Shown piece after piece: positions 58-7,205 of a stretch of 64,000 nt of DNA. Location of the stretch: IMG/VR virus record IMGVR_UViG_3300020577_007133, positions 32,001 to 96,000 of that record. One strand, written 5' to 3'. The notes below the pieces were generated by a model. That model searched no databases, had not been told where the DNA came from, and saw only the letters and a list, made by a program, of their open reading frames with translations. Numbering within the stretch: position 1 is the stretch's first letter; every line of letters starts with the position of its first letter. Origin of the DNA: a virus (lineage: Duplodnaviria; Caudoviricetes). Made by a program: the position numbers and the translations under genes.

Positions 58-417
58 ATGGTAGATTTAACATCGTTCATTATGGGTATAGTTTTGGTTC
101 TCGGGGTACTGGGAGTTGGGGTTGTGGTTATGATGTACATTCAAATTAACAGATTAAAAAGAAAATGTGCTCAATTGGAACAAGTTCAGGGACATATTTT
201 TACAGAAATAAATAGAACAGGTGATGACCTACATCGTCGTATTGATGGTGAGATTGGTAGAACTGATAAAATGTATGAAGAAACTAATCGATACGTCAAT
301 GGAAGAATTGATAGTGTATACAAAGATATTGAAGAGGTATATAGAAATATGGATTCTAGATTAGATAGATTAACAAATAAATTAAATCCGGCAAAAAAGG
401 ATTTATTACAAGATTAA
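58..417 (+). CDS. Hypothetical protein, N-terminal transmembrane helix plus coiled coil
   Basis: ORF 4..417, but ATG at 58 after an A-rich leader is the more plausible start; hydrophobic FIMGIVLVLGVLGVGVVVMM segment followed by heptad-like repeats. Confidence 0.65.
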   Translation: MVDLTSFIMGIVLVLGVLGVGVVVMMYIQINRLKRKCAQLEQVQGHIFTEINRTGDDLHRRIDGEIGRTDKMYEETNRYVNGRIDSVYKDIEEVYRNMDSRLDRLTNKLNPAKKDLLQD

Positions 418-473: not shown

Positions 474-868
474 TGGTGGAGATGAGGGGAATCGAACCCC
501 TTTCTTGCATACCTTAAAAATTAAGGACTACACGCTTAGGACATTGTTTAGCTAACAATCCGAAATTTCACAATTCCCTTATTTTTTAAGTGGTTCGGTT
601 TACTGAGAACTAATCTTCCACTCGTACCTTTTCGGGTAGGTACCACACCTTTGTAGAGACTTCTGTTGCAAGGTTATATGTCCATCGACCCCGTGTTGTG
701 TTTCCGCTTAGGCTACTACAACTTCCTCAGCACGGATTAAACCGATAGCTGACATTTTGTCTAAAATGTTGCCATTTATAGTTTTGTTACTCATAGATTT
801 AAGTGATAGAGAACATCTCACTGCGTGCCCCGAATGATTAACAATACCAATCAATACCGGTCATCCCC
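474..868 (-). ncRNA. ssrA: tmRNA (transfer-messenger RNA)
   Basis: 5' GGGGATG pairs with 3' CATCTCC-ACCA, with a G3:U wobble (Ala identity) and encoded CCA; T-arm GGGGTTCGATTCCCC; 395 nt; pk1-like GTGA/TCAC stem; ATAAAT-GGC resume context then tag GNILDKMSAIGLIRAEEVVVA* (773..708). Confidence 0.93.
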
Positions 869-882
869 TTATTATTATGGTA

Positions 883-913
883 CAAAGATAATACAAAAAA
901 TTGAAAAACCAAA
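883..913 (-). promoter_or_regulatory. Bacteroidota sigma70-type promoter for tmRNA
   Basis: TTTG-N19-TATCTTTG on the minus strand, 14 nt upstream of the tmRNA 5' end; matches the Bacteroidota -33/-7 consensus. Confidence 0.8.
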
Positions 914-945
914 TTTTTTTTATATTTATTTAAAAATAAATATCT

Positions 946-2328
946 ATGCCTAACGAAAACGACAACCACGGAGAATCAAGAATCATTTTCGAAGATTATG
1001 ATTGGTTAATTGTGAACCCTTTAGATTACGAATCTTACGTATATCACGCTCCGGAAAATATGAAATCAAGGTTTGGTGAATTTAGAGATGGGTATATTTA
1101 TTTTATCGTGGATAAAAATAATAATGCAACATATGCGGGTGGATTCAAAACCTATATGATGTATTTGGATGATGACGTTACGCAATATTATAATTGGAAT
1201 GGTAAAGATATAAAAAACAAAAAAACATTCGTTGAAGATTTTCCCGATGAGATAATTAAACAAATAAATAATATTCTTGGTAATAGTGAATTATATGAGT
1301 TATTGGTAAAAATAGTTTCAGGTCGTACAGTCGGTCCGTATGAAATGAAAAACTCCGATGACCTAATTACTAAGTTCACATATAACGAATCAAATCCGGG
1401 TAAAAGTTTAATTCGATTAACCTTTTATGATACTGATGACTTCTTTAAGATTTTCAACATAGATGAAAATGATAAATGGTTTGTTGATAGAATGTTTAGT
1501 AGTTATGATAGTTATGATTTTTATGATAGTCACCACGCATATGAAGAATGGAAACAAGGATATATTATTGATGGTTTTAATGATGAAAATCTTCAAAAGT
1601 TTAAAGAAATTGTTAGTTTAGTTGCACCCCAATATAGTAATTTAAATGACGAGGATACCAAAGTAAAAGCGGCAGAATTAATGGATGAGATGTTTAGTGA
1701 AATTAGTGATATATATGATGATTGGGTAACTGAGTACAACTATTGTTTAAATCGTGGTGGTGTTGAATGGATTCAATCTGATTTATGTGGTATTTTTAGT
1801 AATTATGGTTTAGTGGAAAAAGAATGTATGAAAGAATATCTAACCACCGCACGTATTTTATTATCATTATATAATCAGGTTAAAGATAGTACTTTAACGT
1901 TAACCGAATTGTTAAGTGAGTTAGTTAAAGATAAAGACATTGGAGGGTGGGATGAACATATGTTTGAAGTTGATTGTGTTGATTTTGATGATGATTCGTT
2001 TCAAACATACGTAACAAACAGATTGGAAAAAATTTATGATAGATTGGAAGATGATGAGAACTTTGTTAACGTTTCAGAATATTCTAGATTATATCAAGGA
2101 ATAACTTCAAAATATAAGATAGATACTAACTATAAAACTAAATACGGAAAATCTTTTAAAATTATAAAAATAAACCCGGTGGATAATAAAATTCACGTTG
2201 CGGTTGATATGGGAGGTGGTAAAGGACAAGAAAGAAGTTATACCGAAGATGAATTTAATAACTTTTTAGTTTCTCCGGAATTATTTGAAAATAAAAAAAT
2301 TCGTAAAAAAACATTAACATTCAAATAA
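946..2328 (+). CDS. Hypothetical acidic protein
   Basis: 460 aa ORF; TATTTAT motif at 923-929; no recognisable domain. Confidence 0.7.
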   Translation: MPNENDNHGESRIIFEDYDWLIVNPLDYESYVYHAPENMKSRFGEFRDGYIYFIVDKNNNATYAGGFKTYMMYLDDDVTQYYNWNGKDIKNKKTFVEDFPDEIIKQINNILGNSELYELLVKIVSGRTVGPYEMKNSDDLITKFTYNESNPGKSLIRLTFYDTDDFFKIFNIDENDKWFVDRMFSSYDSYDFYDSHHAYEEWKQGYIIDGFNDENLQKFKEIVSLVAPQYSNLNDEDTKVKAAELMDEMFSEISDIYDDWVTEYNYCLNRGGVEWIQSDLCGIFSNYGLVEKECMKEYLTTARILLSLYNQVKDSTLTLTELLSELVKDKDIGGWDEHMFEVDCVDFDDDSFQTYVTNRLEKIYDRLEDDENFVNVSEYSRLYQGITSKYKIDTNYKTKYGKSFKIIKINPVDNKIHVAVDMGGGKGQERSYTEDEFNNFLVSPELFENKKIRKKTLTFK

Positions 2329-2335
2329 TTTGTTG

Positions 2336-2343
2336 TATCTTTG
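2336..2343 (+). promoter_or_regulatory. Bacteroidota -7 promoter element, probably giving a near-leaderless mRNA
   Basis: TATCTTTG only 4 nt before ATG 2348; no -33 TTTG at the canonical spacing. Confidence 0.55.
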
Positions 2344-2347
2344 CCTA

Positions 2348-3166
2348 ATGGAAAGAGCTTATCAATTATTAAAAGATGTTTTGTCGGTTCCGACTAAAAC
2401 ATATCAAGAAACCTTTATGGTTGAATTTCTAATCAATTGGTTAGAGGAAAATGGGATTCCTTTTAATGTGGATGAACATCAAAATATTTACGCAATAAAA
2501 CAAACCGATGAGTTTGTGGATTACTTCCCTTGTGTAATTGCTCATACGGACACGGTACATTCAATAGATAATATTATCGTAAAAGAAGAGACATTACCAA
2601 ATGAACAGGGTGTGATTAAACCATCCTTAAAAGCGTATAATCATTTAGGTAACCCAACCGGAATTGGTGGTGATGATAAATGTGGTATTTATGCTTGTTT
2701 AGAATTACTGAAAGAATTACCTAATCTAAAAGCCGCTTTTTTTGTGTCTGAAGAAACCGGATGTCACGGTTCTAAAAAGGCTGACCCAAATTTCTTCATC
2801 AATGTTGGATATGGAATTCAATTTGACGCTCCCGGGAATACTATGGTAACCGAATACTGTATGGGTACTAAATTGTTCGATAGAGATAGTGATTTCTTCA
2901 AAACTTGTGATGAGATATTAAATGAATGTTTCATTAGTACTCCGGTATATCATTCCAATCCATATACCGATGTATATGCGTTAAAAAATAGTTTTGATTT
3001 TGCTTGTATAAATTTTGCAATCGGATATTATAACTATCACACTCCACGAGAATATGTTGTAGTTGAAGACGTTTATAATGGAATCAAAACCGGTAAAAAA
3101 ATGATTGAGAAATTAGGTAATAAAAAATATCATTATATCGCGGAAACAAAATATAGATTGTTTTAA
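2348..3166 (+). CDS. Zn-dependent peptidase, M28/M20 family
   Basis: Metal-ligand motifs AHTDTV, GGDDKCG, SEETGC, QFD and YHT; ATG 2348 preferred over TTG 2330. Confidence 0.8.
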   Translation: MERAYQLLKDVLSVPTKTYQETFMVEFLINWLEENGIPFNVDEHQNIYAIKQTDEFVDYFPCVIAHTDTVHSIDNIIVKEETLPNEQGVIKPSLKAYNHLGNPTGIGGDDKCGIYACLELLKELPNLKAAFFVSEETGCHGSKKADPNFFINVGYGIQFDAPGNTMVTEYCMGTKLFDRDSDFFKTCDEILNECFISTPVYHSNPYTDVYALKNSFDFACINFAIGYYNYHTPREYVVVEDVYNGIKTGKKMIEKLGNKKYHYIAETKYRLF

Positions 3167-3188
3167 AGAGACTTCGGTCTCTTTTTTT
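3165..3188 (+). terminator. Intrinsic terminator
   Basis: AAAGAGAC-TTCG-GTCTCTTT-TTTT, a C(UUCG)G tetraloop hairpin. Confidence 0.85.
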
Positions 3189-3218
3189 ATTATAAGATAT
3201 TTATAAATAAAATATTTT

Positions 3219-3737
3219 ATGAAAAACTTATTTATTATATCCGAAGAAGAAAAGGAAAGAATTTTAAATATTCACGAAAGTGCAACAAAACGCCAATATC
3301 TAAAGGAAGAGGTAGTGACGATAACTGATAACGATAAAAATTATGATTATCAAAAAAATGGTCAGACATATTTTTTTAGAGTTAAACCTACAGCAACAGA
3401 TAAAAGAGCATTAAAATATAAAGATGGTAATTGGCACCAAGCAACCTTTGGTGCGATTAATGCAATTAAAGCCCTTTTTGATAAAAAACCAATGGGGACT
3501 CAAAAACAAGCTCAACCACAACAAAAACAAGTTCAACCACAACAGAAACAAGTTCAACCACAACAGAAACCAGTAACACCGACAACACCATCAGACGCAG
3601 CGGTTAAAACGGCCACAACAAGTCAACAAACAATACCACAAACTATTAAATCACCGGATAATACTCAAACTCAAAATAAAGAACAATCAGGAGGTAGTAG
3701 TTTTTCAGAAACAGATTTAAATAATATAATAGCATAA
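3219..3737 (+). CDS. Hypothetical late (probably virion-internal) protein with Q/P-rich repeats
   Basis: TATTTAT at 3198-3204; N-terminal IISEEEKERILNIHES motif; 21-nt tandem repeats encoding QKQVQPQ at about 3501-3570. Confidence 0.65.
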   Translation: MKNLFIISEEEKERILNIHESATKRQYLKEEVVTITDNDKNYDYQKNGQTYFFRVKPTATDKRALKYKDGNWHQATFGAINAIKALFDKKPMGTQKQAQPQQKQVQPQQKQVQPQQKPVTPTTPSDAAVKTATTSQQTIPQTIKSPDNTQTQNKEQSGGSSFSETDLNNIIA

Positions 3738-3767
3738 AAAAAGGGGGATTATTTATCCCCCTTTTTT
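3736..3767. terminator. Bidirectional intrinsic terminator
   Basis: AAAAAAAGGGGGA-TTATTTA-TCCCCCTTTTTT between convergent genes. Confidence 0.85.
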
Positions 3768-5788
3768 GTTTTACTACTTTTTACTTCTTGAAATTTCACT
3801 TCCTTATCCACAACACACAATGAGTAAGGTGTGTCTTCGGTAACATTCCCTTTAATAATTTCTTCGGATACATAATCCTCAATTTTATCTTGGATTGCTC
3901 GTTTGATTGGTCTAGCACCATAGGTTTCATCAAAACCAACTTCCGAGATTAAATCTAAAATAGTATCATCAAAAGTGATGTTATATTTTAGTCCGATTAA
4001 TCGTTTAGACAATTTATCTAATTCTAATTTAACTATCTTCTTAACTTCATCTTTACCTAATGAATTAAAGATGATAACTTCATCAATTCTATTTAAGAAT
4101 TCCGGGGTGAAAAATTTTTTAAGTTCTTTTTTCAATGTTTCTCGTTTGTATTCTTCCTCCGCGTATGAACTATTACCGGTTTTAAAACCAACACCGGAAC
4201 CGAAGTCTTGTAATTTTTTAACCCCCACGTTTGATGTCATAATGATAACACAATTTTTGAAGTTAATTTTTCTACCCATACCATCGGTAAGGTGACCATC
4301 GTCTAATACCTGAAGTAGTGAACCAAAGATGTCTTTGTTTGCTTTCTCAATCTCATCAAAAAGGATAACTGAGTAAGGTTTGTTTTTTACTTGTTCGGTA
4401 AGTTGTCCTCCTTCATCATATCCTACGTATCCCGGAGGTGCTCCGATTAAACGTGAGATAGAATGTTTCTCTTGGTATTCGGACATATCAACACGAATCA
4501 TATTGTCTTCACTACCGAACATTTGTTTGGCTAGTTGTTTTGCCAAATATGTTTTTCCTACACCGGTTGAACCAAGGAAGATGAAAGAACCAATTGGTTT
4601 ATTTGGGTCTTTAATACCAACTCTGTTTCTTCTAATTGATTTAACAATTTTTGAAACCGCGTCAGATTGTCCAATAACTTTATCAGAAAGAATGTTTTCC
4701 ATTTCAGATAATGTTTTGGTTTCATCTGAATTAATTTTGGTTACCGGAATTTTGGTCATATTGGAAACCACTTCATAAACCAAATCTAAGGTAATTTCTT
4801 TTTTATTGTTTAAGGATTCTTCCTCAAACTTTTTCTTTTCCGCTTCAAGTTTGTTAAGGATTCGTTTTTCCTTATCTCGAAGATTGGCTGCTTCTTCATA
4901 ACGTTGTTGTTTAACAACATCAATCTTTTCTTGTTTGATATCCGCGGCTTGTTGTTTAAGTTTTTCGATGGATTCCGGTAGTTTAACTTCAACCTGACTT
5001 CTCGCTCCTACCTCATCAATAATATCAAAAGCTTTATCCGGGAATTCTCTGTCGGTGATATATCTGTCCGCCAAATCAACACAAGTTGATAGTACCTCAT
5101 CAGAATAAGTTACCTTATGGTAATCTTCATATTTTGATTTAACATTTTGAAGAATAATTAAGGTTTCTTCTTTGGTTGCAGCATCCACAATTACTTTTTG
5201 GAAACGTCTCTCTAACGCTCCGTCTTTCTCAAAGTTTTTACGATATTCGTCTAATGTTGTTGCTCCGACACATTGAATTTCTCCACGGGCAAGTGCAGGT
5301 TTGAAAATATTTGATGCGTCCATTGAACCGGATGAATTTCCCGCTCCAACGATTGTATGAATTTCGTCGATGAATACAATTATGTTTGGGGCGTTTTGAA
5401 GTTCCTCAATAATTACTTTCATCCTTTCTTCAAATTGACCTCGATATTTGGTACCGGCAACAATTGAAGTCATATCTAATGATACAATACGTTTATCCAT
5501 TAAATTCCTTGGACAATCTCCTTCAAAAATCTTAATGGCTAATCCCTCAACAATCGCTGTCTTACCACATCCGGGCTCACCAATAATAATTGGGTTATTT
5601 TTCTTTCTACGAGAAAGAATTTGAGCAATTCGAGTAATTTCACGCTCTCGACCAACAACCGGGTCAAGTTTTCCTTCTTGGGCTAATTTAATAAGGTCTC
5701 TACTAAAATTATCTAATACAGGTGTAGAAGAGTCTGTTTTGACTGCTTTATTACCACCGTTTGCTCCACCATCTAATGAATCTGTCAT
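3749..5788 (-). CDS. clpC: ClpC-type AAA+ unfoldase lacking the N-terminal Clp_N domain
   Basis: Two AAA modules (GEPGCGKT/FIDE and GSTGVGKT/LFDE); pore loops KYRG and GYVG; UVR-type middle domain (QRYEEAANLRD); ClpP-docking VGF loop. Confidence 0.9.
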   Translation of the reverse strand: MTDSLDGGANGGNKAVKTDSSTPVLDNFSRDLIKLAQEGKLDPVVGREREITRIAQILSRRKKNNPIIIGEPGCGKTAIVEGLAIKIFEGDCPRNLMDKRIVSLDMTSIVAGTKYRGQFEERMKVIIEELQNAPNIIVFIDEIHTIVGAGNSSGSMDASNIFKPALARGEIQCVGATTLDEYRKNFEKDGALERRFQKVIVDAATKEETLIILQNVKSKYEDYHKVTYSDEVLSTCVDLADRYITDREFPDKAFDIIDEVGARSQVEVKLPESIEKLKQQAADIKQEKIDVVKQQRYEEAANLRDKEKRILNKLEAEKKKFEEESLNNKKEITLDLVYEVVSNMTKIPVTKINSDETKTLSEMENILSDKVIGQSDAVSKIVKSIRRNRVGIKDPNKPIGSFIFLGSTGVGKTYLAKQLAKQMFGSEDNMIRVDMSEYQEKHSISRLIGAPPGYVGYDEGGQLTEQVKNKPYSVILFDEIEKANKDIFGSLLQVLDDGHLTDGMGRKINFKNCVIIMTSNVGVKKLQDFGSGVGFKTGNSSYAEEEYKRETLKKELKKFFTPEFLNRIDEVIIFNSLGKDEVKKIVKLELDKLSKRLIGLKYNITFDDTILDLISEVGFDETYGARPIKRAIQDKIEDYVSEEIIKGNVTEDTPYSLCVVDKEVKFQEVKSSKTKKGDK

Positions 5789-5818
5789 AATTTTTTACTT
5801 AATTAATAATTTATGATG

Positions 5819-5849
5819 CAAAGATAAACATATTTTTTTTAAATCCAAA
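5819..5849 (-). promoter_or_regulatory. Bacteroidota sigma70-type promoter for clpC
   Basis: TTTG-N19-TATCTTTG on the minus strand, back-to-back with a late motif at 5850. Confidence 0.8.
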
Positions 5850-5860
5850 TATTTATTGAT

Positions 5861-6202
5861 ATGAAATTACAAAGCGGTTGGAAAAAATATTTGGAAGTAA
5901 TCGATGAGTTGAAAGAATTGGAATCAATTTATCGTGAATTACGTCACGCATTTAGACGTGAGGGTTGGACTGAAAAGGATTTAGAGAAACCACCATACTA
6001 CCCGACAGATATAATGAGAAATTTTCAAAGATATTCCGATGAGCAAACCAGAGTTTTTCATTTATTAAAAGATTATTTTGATATAAAAGATTTTAATGAA
6101 TACACTGATTACTTAAAAGAAAGACTTCGTATTATTGATTTAGAAATACCTTTAAAAGATGGCGATACTAAAAGAAACAATTCAAGGGACGAAGATAATT
6201 AA
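5861..6202 (+). CDS. Hypothetical protein
   Basis: 113 aa ORF; TATTTAT 4 nt upstream of ATG. Confidence 0.65.
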   Translation: MKLQSGWKKYLEVIDELKELESIYRELRHAFRREGWTEKDLEKPPYYPTDIMRNFQRYSDEQTRVFHLLKDYFDIKDFNEYTDYLKERLRIIDLEIPLKDGDTKRNNSRDEDN

Positions 6203-6401
6203 TGAAATTAAATCTTCAAACGTAAAAAAAACCGAATACGACACTGAAACAAAAAAATTAGTTGTGGAATTTAACAACGGATTAAAGTACGAGTATGATG
6301 ATGTTCCTCATCAAATATATACTCAATTCAGAATGGCAGAATCTCAAGGAAAATTCTTCTCTTCAAAAATAGTTAAAACTTACAAACACAAAAAATTGTA
6401 A
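6159..6401 (+). CDS. KTSC domain protein
   Basis: SSNVKKTEYD..LVVEFNNG..YEYDDVP..Y..F..AESQGKFF matches the KTSC pattern. Confidence 0.85.
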   Translation: MAILKETIQGTKIINEIKSSNVKKTEYDTETKKLVVEFNNGLKYEYDDVPHQIYTQFRMAESQGKFFSSKIVKTYKHKKL

Positions 6402-6431: not shown

Positions 6432-7205
6432 ATGAGTAATTTAAAAAGTATTTTATCAAGTTTTCATTTAAAGGATAAACTAAATCCTAAGATTTGGGTT
6501 TTACCTAATGAAAGAGCTATGTCCGACCCAAAAGGACAGATGGAGACTATGAGACCTAAAGTCAGAGAAAGATTAATTGATATCGCTGACGAATTTATAG
6601 ATTTCTTAGGTGTAGATGTGATAGTATCAGATGTAATGATGACCGGGTCATTAGCTAATTATAATTGGTCTCAATTTTCAGATATTGATTTACATATAAT
6701 CGTTGATTTTGAACAATTCTCAGATAGAGAATTACCATTATATGAAGAACTTTTCAAATTAAAAAAAACTTTATTTAACGATAAGCACAATATCACCATT
6801 TTTGGTTACGATGTTGAGTTATACGTTCAAAATGAATCAGAATCACATTTTAGTAGCGGTGAATACTCAGTATTATATGATGAATGGATAACGAAACCTA
6901 AAATAGATAATACTGAAGTTGATACTGAACTAATCAAGAAGAAGTCACAACAATGGATGAACCAAATTGATATGGTTATTGAAAACGCGAAAAAAGAACC
7001 ATTGGATGTTGCAATAGATTTAATTGATAAGTATAAAGATAAGATTAAGAAATATAGAACTGCCGGGTTAGAAAAAGGTGGTGAAATGTCTGATGAAAAT
7101 TTAGTTTTTAAAGTTTTAAGACGAAACGGTTATATCCAAAAACTTTTTGATTTTCAAACTGAATATAAAGATGAAAAACTTTCTTTAGCCGAAAAAACAA
7201 TATAA
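6432..7205 (+). CDS. Pol-beta superfamily nucleotidyltransferase
   Basis: TGSLANYNWSQFSDIDLH (GS...DxD) plus a third acidic residue in DVELY; TATTTAT at 6420-6426. Confidence 0.8.
   Translation: MSNLKSILSSFHLKDKLNPKIWVLPNERAMSDPKGQMETMRPKVRERLIDIADEFIDFLGVDVIVSDVMMTGSLANYNWSQFSDIDLHIIVDFEQFSDRELPLYEELFKLKKTLFNDKHNITIFGYDVELYVQNESESHFSSGEYSVLYDEWITKPKIDNTEVDTELIKKKSQQWMNQIDMVIENAKKEPLDVAIDLIDKYKDKIKKYRTAGLEKGGEMSDENLVFKVLRRNGYIQKLFDFQTEYKDEKLSLAEKTI

Follow-up and report, generated by a model that had tools for sequence, protein, structure and literature searches.

The 64,000-nucleotide stretch of DNA analysed here (the window) comprises bases 32001-96000 of a 104,772-bp virus contig from IMG/VR (IMGVR_UViG_3300020577_007133, Duplodnaviria, Caudoviricetes; contig G000 in our numbering). 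Near its left end it carries a gene for a transfer-messenger RNA (tmRNA), a gene for an M20-type peptidase, and a gene for a ClpC-type Hsp100 unfoldase. A preliminary description of this DNA, made from the letters alone, had located these three genes between positions 474 and 5849 and had noted that the ClpC is without a Clp_N domain but has the VGF loop for docking to ClpP. All of this is confirmed by our analysis, and the three genes look functional by sequence. A fourth gene, for SmpB, lies just outside the window.

CheckV puts the completeness of the contig at 35%, corresponding to a genome of about 300 kb, and its GC content is 31.5%. Relatives were retrieved with the ClpC protein, which matched 221 stretches in viral contigs. 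The best 80 of the 221 are 78-93% identical, and the counts of relatives given below (80, 77, 73, 72, 67 and 66) refer to loci among these best 80. Several relatives lie on contigs of 308-322 kb, some of them with terminal repeats. The phage, one of Bacteroidota, belongs to a large and abundant clade of freshwater jumbo phages that use Bacteroidota-type promoters. It is very common in lake metagenomes, the peptidase alone having more than 2000 homologues, and megablast of the first 8 kb of the window against GenBank phages gave no match.

The tmRNA gene (ssrA; 474-868, minus strand), found by ARAGORN and by Rfam model RF00023, is of the one-piece kind. It scores 84.5 bits, the gathering score being 47, and covers model positions 1-374, which is the whole model. 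Its tRNA-like domain has an acceptor stem with the G3-U70 pair, a T arm and an encoded 3' CCA. The tag reading frame (708-773, minus strand) opens with the resume codon GGC, extends over 21 codons and ends in UAA; it is supported by ARAGORN, by Rfam and by conservation, and the 21-residue peptide given by ARAGORN is GNILDKMSAIGLIRAEEVVVA. Homologues of the tmRNA were detected by blastn in 67 related loci, at the same position in each, and Rfam also detects it in relatives G001, G002, G003 and G005. The RNA is predicted to be charged with alanine and to tag stalled nascent chains.

Among the 80 loci, ARAGORN reported a tmRNA in only 4 of the 67 in which one is known from blastn and Rfam, and the latter two methods were used instead; lowering the ARAGORN thresholds on the relatives produced spurious tags, which were discarded. 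As default ARAGORN finds just 4 of 67 in this clade, surveys based on it, such as the huge-phage paper of 2020 (Al-Shayeb et al., 2020), probably undercount phage tmRNAs.

The tag frame is intact in 66 related loci, which encode 24 versions of the peptide, 21-22 residues long. Common to all 24 are an Asn or Asp at position 2, Lys at 6, Gly-Leu at 11-12 and Arg at 14, and the C-terminus is V-A in every version but one, which ends in A-A. Across the 66 relatives, the first 14 codons have 11 variable sites at codon position 1, 3 at position 2 and 13 at position 3, and the Leu and Arg codons undergo multi-base synonymous switches. Because the second codon positions are nearly invariant and the Leu and Arg codons switch synonymously, the pattern indicates that selection acts on the tag peptide and not on the RNA alone. 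The preliminary description had spoken of the phage's own tag. The tags of two Bacteroidota metagenome-assembled genomes (MAGs) are of the nine-residue GERNYALAA type ending in ALAA, unlike the phage tag, which by this comparison appears clearly to be the phage's own and specific to the clade. A distant phage clade, represented by G011 and G012 (373 kb, with terminal repeats), has a tmRNA of 460 nt (L230 1501-1960, minus strand) with no encoded CCA and with a 25-residue tag ending in V-A-A. Long phage-specific tags thus recur in jumbo phages, in this clade and in G011/G012.

The SmpB gene (G000:C1:31557-31985, plus strand) ends 16 nt left of the window. Its product scores 167.8 bits with Pfam and 167.6 bits with the NCBIfam equivalog model, for which the cut-off is 130, and keeps the C-terminal DKR tail motif. 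Directly upstream of SmpB the contig carries 22 tRNA genes. SmpB and tmRNA therefore stand at the edge of a translation (tRNA) island, where they form a complete trans-translation pair, and the presence of SmpB strengthens the earlier proposal of a phage-owned ribosome rescue. In the nearer relatives SmpB adjoins the tmRNA; in G002 and G003 it lies far from it.

The clpC gene (3749-5788, minus strand) encodes 679 amino acids and was identified with Pfam, PHROG and an alignment to Staphylococcus aureus ClpC. The Pfam domains AAA, AAA_lid_9, AAA_2 and ClpB_D2-small make up two AAA+ modules, each with its Walker A and Walker B motifs, and Clp_N is missing. The protein aligns to residues 153-807 of S. 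aureus ClpC (E 1e-224), that is to D1, the M-domain, D2 and the ClpP loop, and to profile positions 166-758 of the 764 of phrog_4871 ('ATP-dependent protease', 1e-242), so that the first ~165 positions of that profile, where the N-domain would lie, have no equivalent in it. As the alignments start at S. aureus residue 153 and profile position 166, the phage ClpC begins where the N-domain of an ordinary ClpC ends. It keeps a short UVR-type M-domain with an aromatic tip: the position of S. aureus F436 is a Tyr in all phage copies but one, a Phe in the published huge phage LR756508. Cellular Bacteroidota ClpC is also aromatic at this tip; it has a Clp_N domain and is 841 aa long. The ClpP-docking tripeptide is VGF in the ClpC of the window, and in all 83 phage copies it is (V/I)GF. 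No Clp_N domain, split or stand-alone forms included, was found in nine phage genomes (this contig, five relatives and three published huge phages). Nor did the clade genomes searched contain a second AAA_2 protein, a ClpS or a ClpX, ClpC being the sole AAA_2 protein in each.

The three published huge phages, LR745206, LR756502 and LR756508, likewise encode a ClpC without N-domain (701, 707 and 657 aa, respectively), together with their own ClpP. By these comparisons, the N-domain has been lost naturally, and its absence is fixed in at least three lineages of phages.

A ClpP gene was not found on this contig. Relatives G001, G004, G005 and G016 encode ClpP proteins that score 177-192 bits, have the catalytic Ser and His motifs and lie outside any capsid-gene context. 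Three of the five relatives first searched are among these, two of them at least 90% complete, and so is G016, which is complete by its direct terminal repeats (DTR). The DNA around the ClpP genes of the relatives has no counterpart on this contig, and we attribute the absence of ClpP here to the contig being a fragment that does not cover the ClpP neighbourhood. Since the closest relatives G001, G004 and G016, whose ClpC is 90-92% identical to that of the window (83% in G005), carry ClpP, this phage very likely encodes a ClpP of its own. The idea that its unfoldase works on host ClpP, put forward in the preliminary description, is thus probably wrong for this phage. It would hold for G002 and G003, two complete genomes with a ClpC about 80% identical, which are without ClpP and keep both the tmRNA and the docking tripeptide, as IGF; there, host ClpP must serve. 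Phage ClpC and ClpP together may be predicted to form an active protease.

The third gene (2348-3166, plus strand) encodes a putative di-zinc peptidase of 272 aa that resembles M20/PepT enzymes without their lid. Its start is the ATG at 2348, not the TTG at 2330 given in the list of open reading frames (ORFs). It matches phrog_4191 ('peptidase') at 2.9e-38, with Pfam M20 and M42 scores just under the cut-offs (M20, 23.1 bits vs 24.6). The alignment to PepT (3gb0) falls into two blocks with a jump from chain residue 169 to 331, showing that the lid/dimerisation domain is missing from the phage protein. Residues H66, D68, D109, E135, E136, D160 and H231 show a conservation of at least 98% among 121 homologues, and the ligand set aligns with that of PepT. 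The family is phage-associated and very large, with 2013 matches.

The three genes share an upstream element of the Bacteroidota type. Promoters for the primary sigma factor of Bacteroidota have TTTG at -33 and TAnnTTTG at -7, with about 19 nt between them; transcription would begin a few nt further downstream and would depend on the sigma factor of the host. The tmRNA is preceded by a full TTTG-N19-TATCTTTG promoter (883-913, minus strand) that ends 14 nt before the mature 5' end, and clpC by another (5819-5849, minus strand), 30 nt before the ATG. The peptidase gene has the -7 box TATCTTTG (2336-2343, plus strand), which ends 4 nt before the ATG and is not accompanied by a -33 element. These elements, all reported in the preliminary description, are present in the window as described. 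Their number in the window (10 copies of TATCTTTG vs 4.6 expected, with 5 of 100 shuffles reaching 10; 9 full patterns vs 4.5 expected) is too weak for a promoter claim, which is carried by conservation in relatives. TAnnTTTG occurs upstream of the tmRNA in 67 of 67 relatives; at the peptidase gene, 74 of 77 relatives have it at a distance of 4-5 nt from the ATG, with diverged flanks. Upstream of clpC, 43 of 72 relatives have any box, 31 as the full motif and 12 as the -7 box alone. The boxes of tmRNA and peptidase are convincing on this evidence, and the conservation at clpC is only partial. The fixed distance from -7 box to ATG suggests that the peptidase mRNA is leaderless. A -7 box that ends 4 nt before the ATG is also seen at an ORF for 79 aa (window coordinate -22650), which suggests leaderless mRNAs from host-type promoters there, too.

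Hairpin terminators delimit the same genes. A bidirectional intrinsic terminator at 443-469, a 12-pair stem followed by a T run, serves the 3' end of the tmRNA and of the ORF at 58-417; another terminator (3165-3184, plus strand) lies 3' of the peptidase gene; and a second bidirectional one (3737-3767) is placed between the ends of clpC and orf172, an ORF described below. As each has its own hairpin terminator, tmRNA, peptidase and clpC are three monocistronic units, and with a host-type promoter element and a terminator per unit, host RNA polymerase could transcribe them without phage factors.

The neighbouring genes have another signal. The motif TATTTAT, which the preliminary description had assigned to them, occurs in the sense -45 to -1 region of 27 of 111 contig genes, against 3 expected and 8 for the reverse complement, and the genes that have it include orf460 (between tmRNA and peptidase), orf172 and the genes right of clpC. 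The contrast of two promoter types is therefore real. The label 'late' that had been attached to the motif did not stand in the same way: 'early' and 'late' are interpretation.

The clade-specific orf460 (946-2328, plus strand; upstream TATTTAT) is present in 73 of 80 loci, is only 26-50% identical among relatives and has no family match. Its confident AF2 model (pLDDT 87.7) gave a best E of 0.036 in Foldseek against the PDB and a best Z of 5.1 over 57 residues in the wide VIA-align search. It is a fast-evolving protein, and its model has no recognisable fold match. As a candidate MecA-like adaptor it was rejected, given that the hit that named MecA was a noise-level ESM Atlas row (0.80) and that whole-model PDB searches gave no match. 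The variable insert orf172 (3219-3737, plus strand) occurs in only 12 of 80 relatives and has no family match, and the ORF between SmpB and tmRNA (58-417, plus strand) has none in Pfam, PHROG and NCBIfam-type searches. On the far side of clpC, the divergent gene at 5861-6202 has no UVR motif. A protein of 80 aa that adjoins clpC there (6159-6401, plus strand; phrog_3292 / phrog_8113) and one of 257 aa with a weak nucleotidyltransferase match (6432-7205, plus strand; phrog_36119) are each conserved in 80 of 80 relatives. Left of the window, one gene of the tRNA island (contig positions 1-29000) is tRNA-like and has an 'anticodon' of 4 nt, gaaa, and relatives L025, L028 and L036 carry similar odd tRNA-like genes (ccct).

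All 67 related contigs that reach far enough show the gene order clpC - peptidase - orf460 - tmRNA, with the tmRNA 2.1-7.2 kb past clpC (median, 2.5 kb). The tmRNA, SmpB, a ClpC without N-domain and ClpP are also combined in genomes of two clades distant from each other, this one and G011/G012, whose SmpB is 59% identical to that of this phage. Across phage lineages, the N-less ClpC appears to travel with ClpP, the four parts are often found in one genome, and tight linkage seems to be special to the clade studied here. The huge phages LR745206.1 and LR756502.1 (634-642 kb; the records behind L096 and L097) encode an SmpB as well (167-177 bits), and they may hide a very divergent or two-piece tmRNA.

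Our data suggest the following course of events in the infected cell. The phage would raise the capacity to free stalled ribosomes, for instance on mRNAs that are cut in the course of host shut-off or by defence RNases, and the truncated products would be marked with the phage's own tag. The ClpC-ClpP protease would degrade proteins independently of N-domain adaptors; the peptides that it releases would be trimmed by the exopeptidase. The phage-owned rescue system and the phage Clp protease are each well founded, and shared host-type promoters are well supported for tmRNA and peptidase and partly for clpC. That tmRNA, ClpC and peptidase form one pathway is plausible. The explanation as a whole, a phage rescue pair with an N-less ClpC/ClpP and an exopeptidase, is the one that we favour, with a confidence somewhat above even.

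The most attractive link in this explanation is that the phage protease would be the reader of the phage tag, a tentative proposal that we consider more apt to fail than to hold; the rescue and protease systems may also work side by side on different substrates. We regard as rather doubtful an orthogonal tag-and-destroy route, in which the tag would be a private degron of 21-22 residues, its core and V-A end being read by the pore of the N-less ClpC, free of host adaptor or phospho-arginine control, and feeding phage or host ClpP. If true, this route would let the phage dispose of truncated proteins and return ribosomes and amino acids to use, for example when host mRNA has decayed or a defence RNase has attacked.

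Work on S. aureus ClpC bears on both proposals (Jenne et al., 2025; PMC12583610). Deletion of its N-domain destabilises the resting state and permits binding of ClpP, and with the additional exchange F436A the truncated protein degrades GFP-SsrA as well as the adaptor-activated wild type does. The ssrA degron is read by the pore of the Hsp100 protein, not by its N-domain. Because of this mode of recognition, it is mechanistically reasonable, by analogy, that a natural N-less ClpC reads a tmRNA tag, for which its M-domain contacts may need to be opened. Several observations speak against the scheme, and two of them come from this comparison. The engineered delta-N ClpC on its own forms head-to-head ring dimers through its M-domains, and rods with ClpP, and is not proteolytic (PMC12583610). 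All phage ClpC copies keep the aromatic M-domain tip, as in this proteolytically inactive form.

The further counter-arguments concern the unity of the pathway, and most of them are shared with its strongest rival, which holds that the genes are neighbours and not parts of one pathway, and which we take as a serious possibility, if one that falls clearly short of even. In that case tmRNA and SmpB would boost rescue as members of the tRNA island, and host ClpXP, Lon and Tsp-like proteases would clear the tagged products by way of their hydrophobic C-terminus. The N-less ClpC/ClpP would have other targets, for example regulators or defence proteins of the host or misfolded proteins of the phage, and the peptidase would recycle peptides. 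The tRNA island, SmpB and tmRNA are indeed contiguous; the SmpB gene overlaps the ORF before it and shows no host-type promoter. Right of clpC, too, the genes are equally syntenic within the clade, and because the whole region is collinear, synteny in the clade carries little weight. Absence of linkage in relatives had been named beforehand as an outcome that would refute a joint module. Within the clade the genes are linked throughout, as stated; in G011/G012 they are not, with the N-less ClpC, SmpB, ClpP and tmRNA dispersed at about 26, 157, 167 and 215 kb, and a search for the peptidase in that clade found none. In the published huge phages, N-less ClpC and ClpP come without a linked tmRNA, as Rfam gives no tmRNA above threshold in LR745206 and LR756502, and that of LR756508 lies 360 kb from clpC. 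The loss of ClpP from G002 and G003, which have retained the tmRNA, points the same way. Moreover, two clearly different tag versions occur among phages with a ClpC at least 89% identical to that of the window, which means that the tag varies independently of ClpC. The V-A at the C-terminus may still be read by host ClpXP, and the tag would then not be private.

Three findings, in turn, speak against mere neighbourhood. A long internal motif of the tag is strongly conserved at the peptide level, which points to a specific reader; host ClpX would not require such a motif. Host-type promoter elements are common to the three genes, with a phage motif at the genes interleaved between them. Finally, the four parts are found together in genomes of two distant clades.

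It is improbable, in our view, that degradation is not the main purpose of the tag and that its carriers meet another fate, be it sequestration, a translation-stress signal to the phage or inactivation without proteolysis, with unfolding or disaggregation as the principal work of ClpC. The tag has double the usual length, and its conservation extends to the internal core (N2, K6, G11-L12 and R14) and not to the C-terminus alone; the long tag of the second phage clade, with 25 residues, and the two complete clade members without ClpP would fit such a role as well. The small hydrophobic pair at the C-terminus, however, is as in degradation tags, the ClpP-docking tripeptide is invariant even in phages without ClpP, and no candidate tag-binding protein was found, orf460 having no recognisable fold. 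Finally, ssrA is an integration site for many temperate elements, which then contain a 3' piece of the gene, but that the tmRNA is the remnant of such an integration, or mis-assembled host DNA, is refuted by the full-length gene (model positions 1-374) with its own promoter, terminator and distinct tag, and by the phage SmpB alongside and the 67 phage contigs that have the tmRNA in this place, and has a negligible chance of being right.

Among the papers searched, none was found on phage tmRNA tags or on a natural N-less ClpC. In the phage ClpC, the engineered delta-N ClpC would have its first natural equivalent, a ready test of how Clp proteases are gated by their N- and M-domains. Should the long conserved tag be a private degron, the phage would have a protein-quality pathway insulated from that of its host, which bears on the takeover of translation by giant phages, and the tag could be of use as an orthogonal degradation tag.

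Compared with known systems, the parts described here have clear precedents. As in bacterial trans-translation, there is a one-piece tmRNA with a tRNA-like domain, a resume codon, a short ORF and a stop codon; an SmpB with a DKR tail; a tag that ends in small hydrophobic residues; and a Clp unfoldase with a ClpP loop, with ClpP in relatives. In bacteria, the tag is read by ClpXP and ClpAP, with the help of SspB in E. coli, whereas here the system is phage-encoded, the tag has 21-22 residues and ends in V-A, and ClpC is the sole unfoldase, the phage genomes searched having neither ClpX nor ClpS (SspB was not among the families searched). Both tmRNA and SmpB have been listed among the translation genes of huge phages, with genomes of more than 200 kb (Al-Shayeb et al., 2020; PMC7162821), in a study that used ARAGORN and gave the genes without the tag, its conservation, a promoter or a link to Clp. 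ClpP, ClpS, ClpA and ClpX have been described in jumbo phages, with host or phage proteins as their presumed targets, in a review that makes no mention of ClpC or tmRNA (Iyer et al., 2021; PMC7824862).

With the ClpC of S. aureus and Bacillus subtilis, the phage protein shares D1, M-domain, D2 and ClpP loop, and it starts where the engineered delta-N form starts. That form is inactive alone (PMC12583610); the phage form may need a partner or differ in its assembly. No homologue of MecA or McsB was noticed in the phages, no search having been aimed at either family. The peptidase has the His, Asp, Glu-Glu, Asp, His set of PepT and other M20 exopeptidases, in a protein of 272 aa without the lid domain. 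The parts are of known kinds, and what is new here is the natural N-less ClpC and the private tag.

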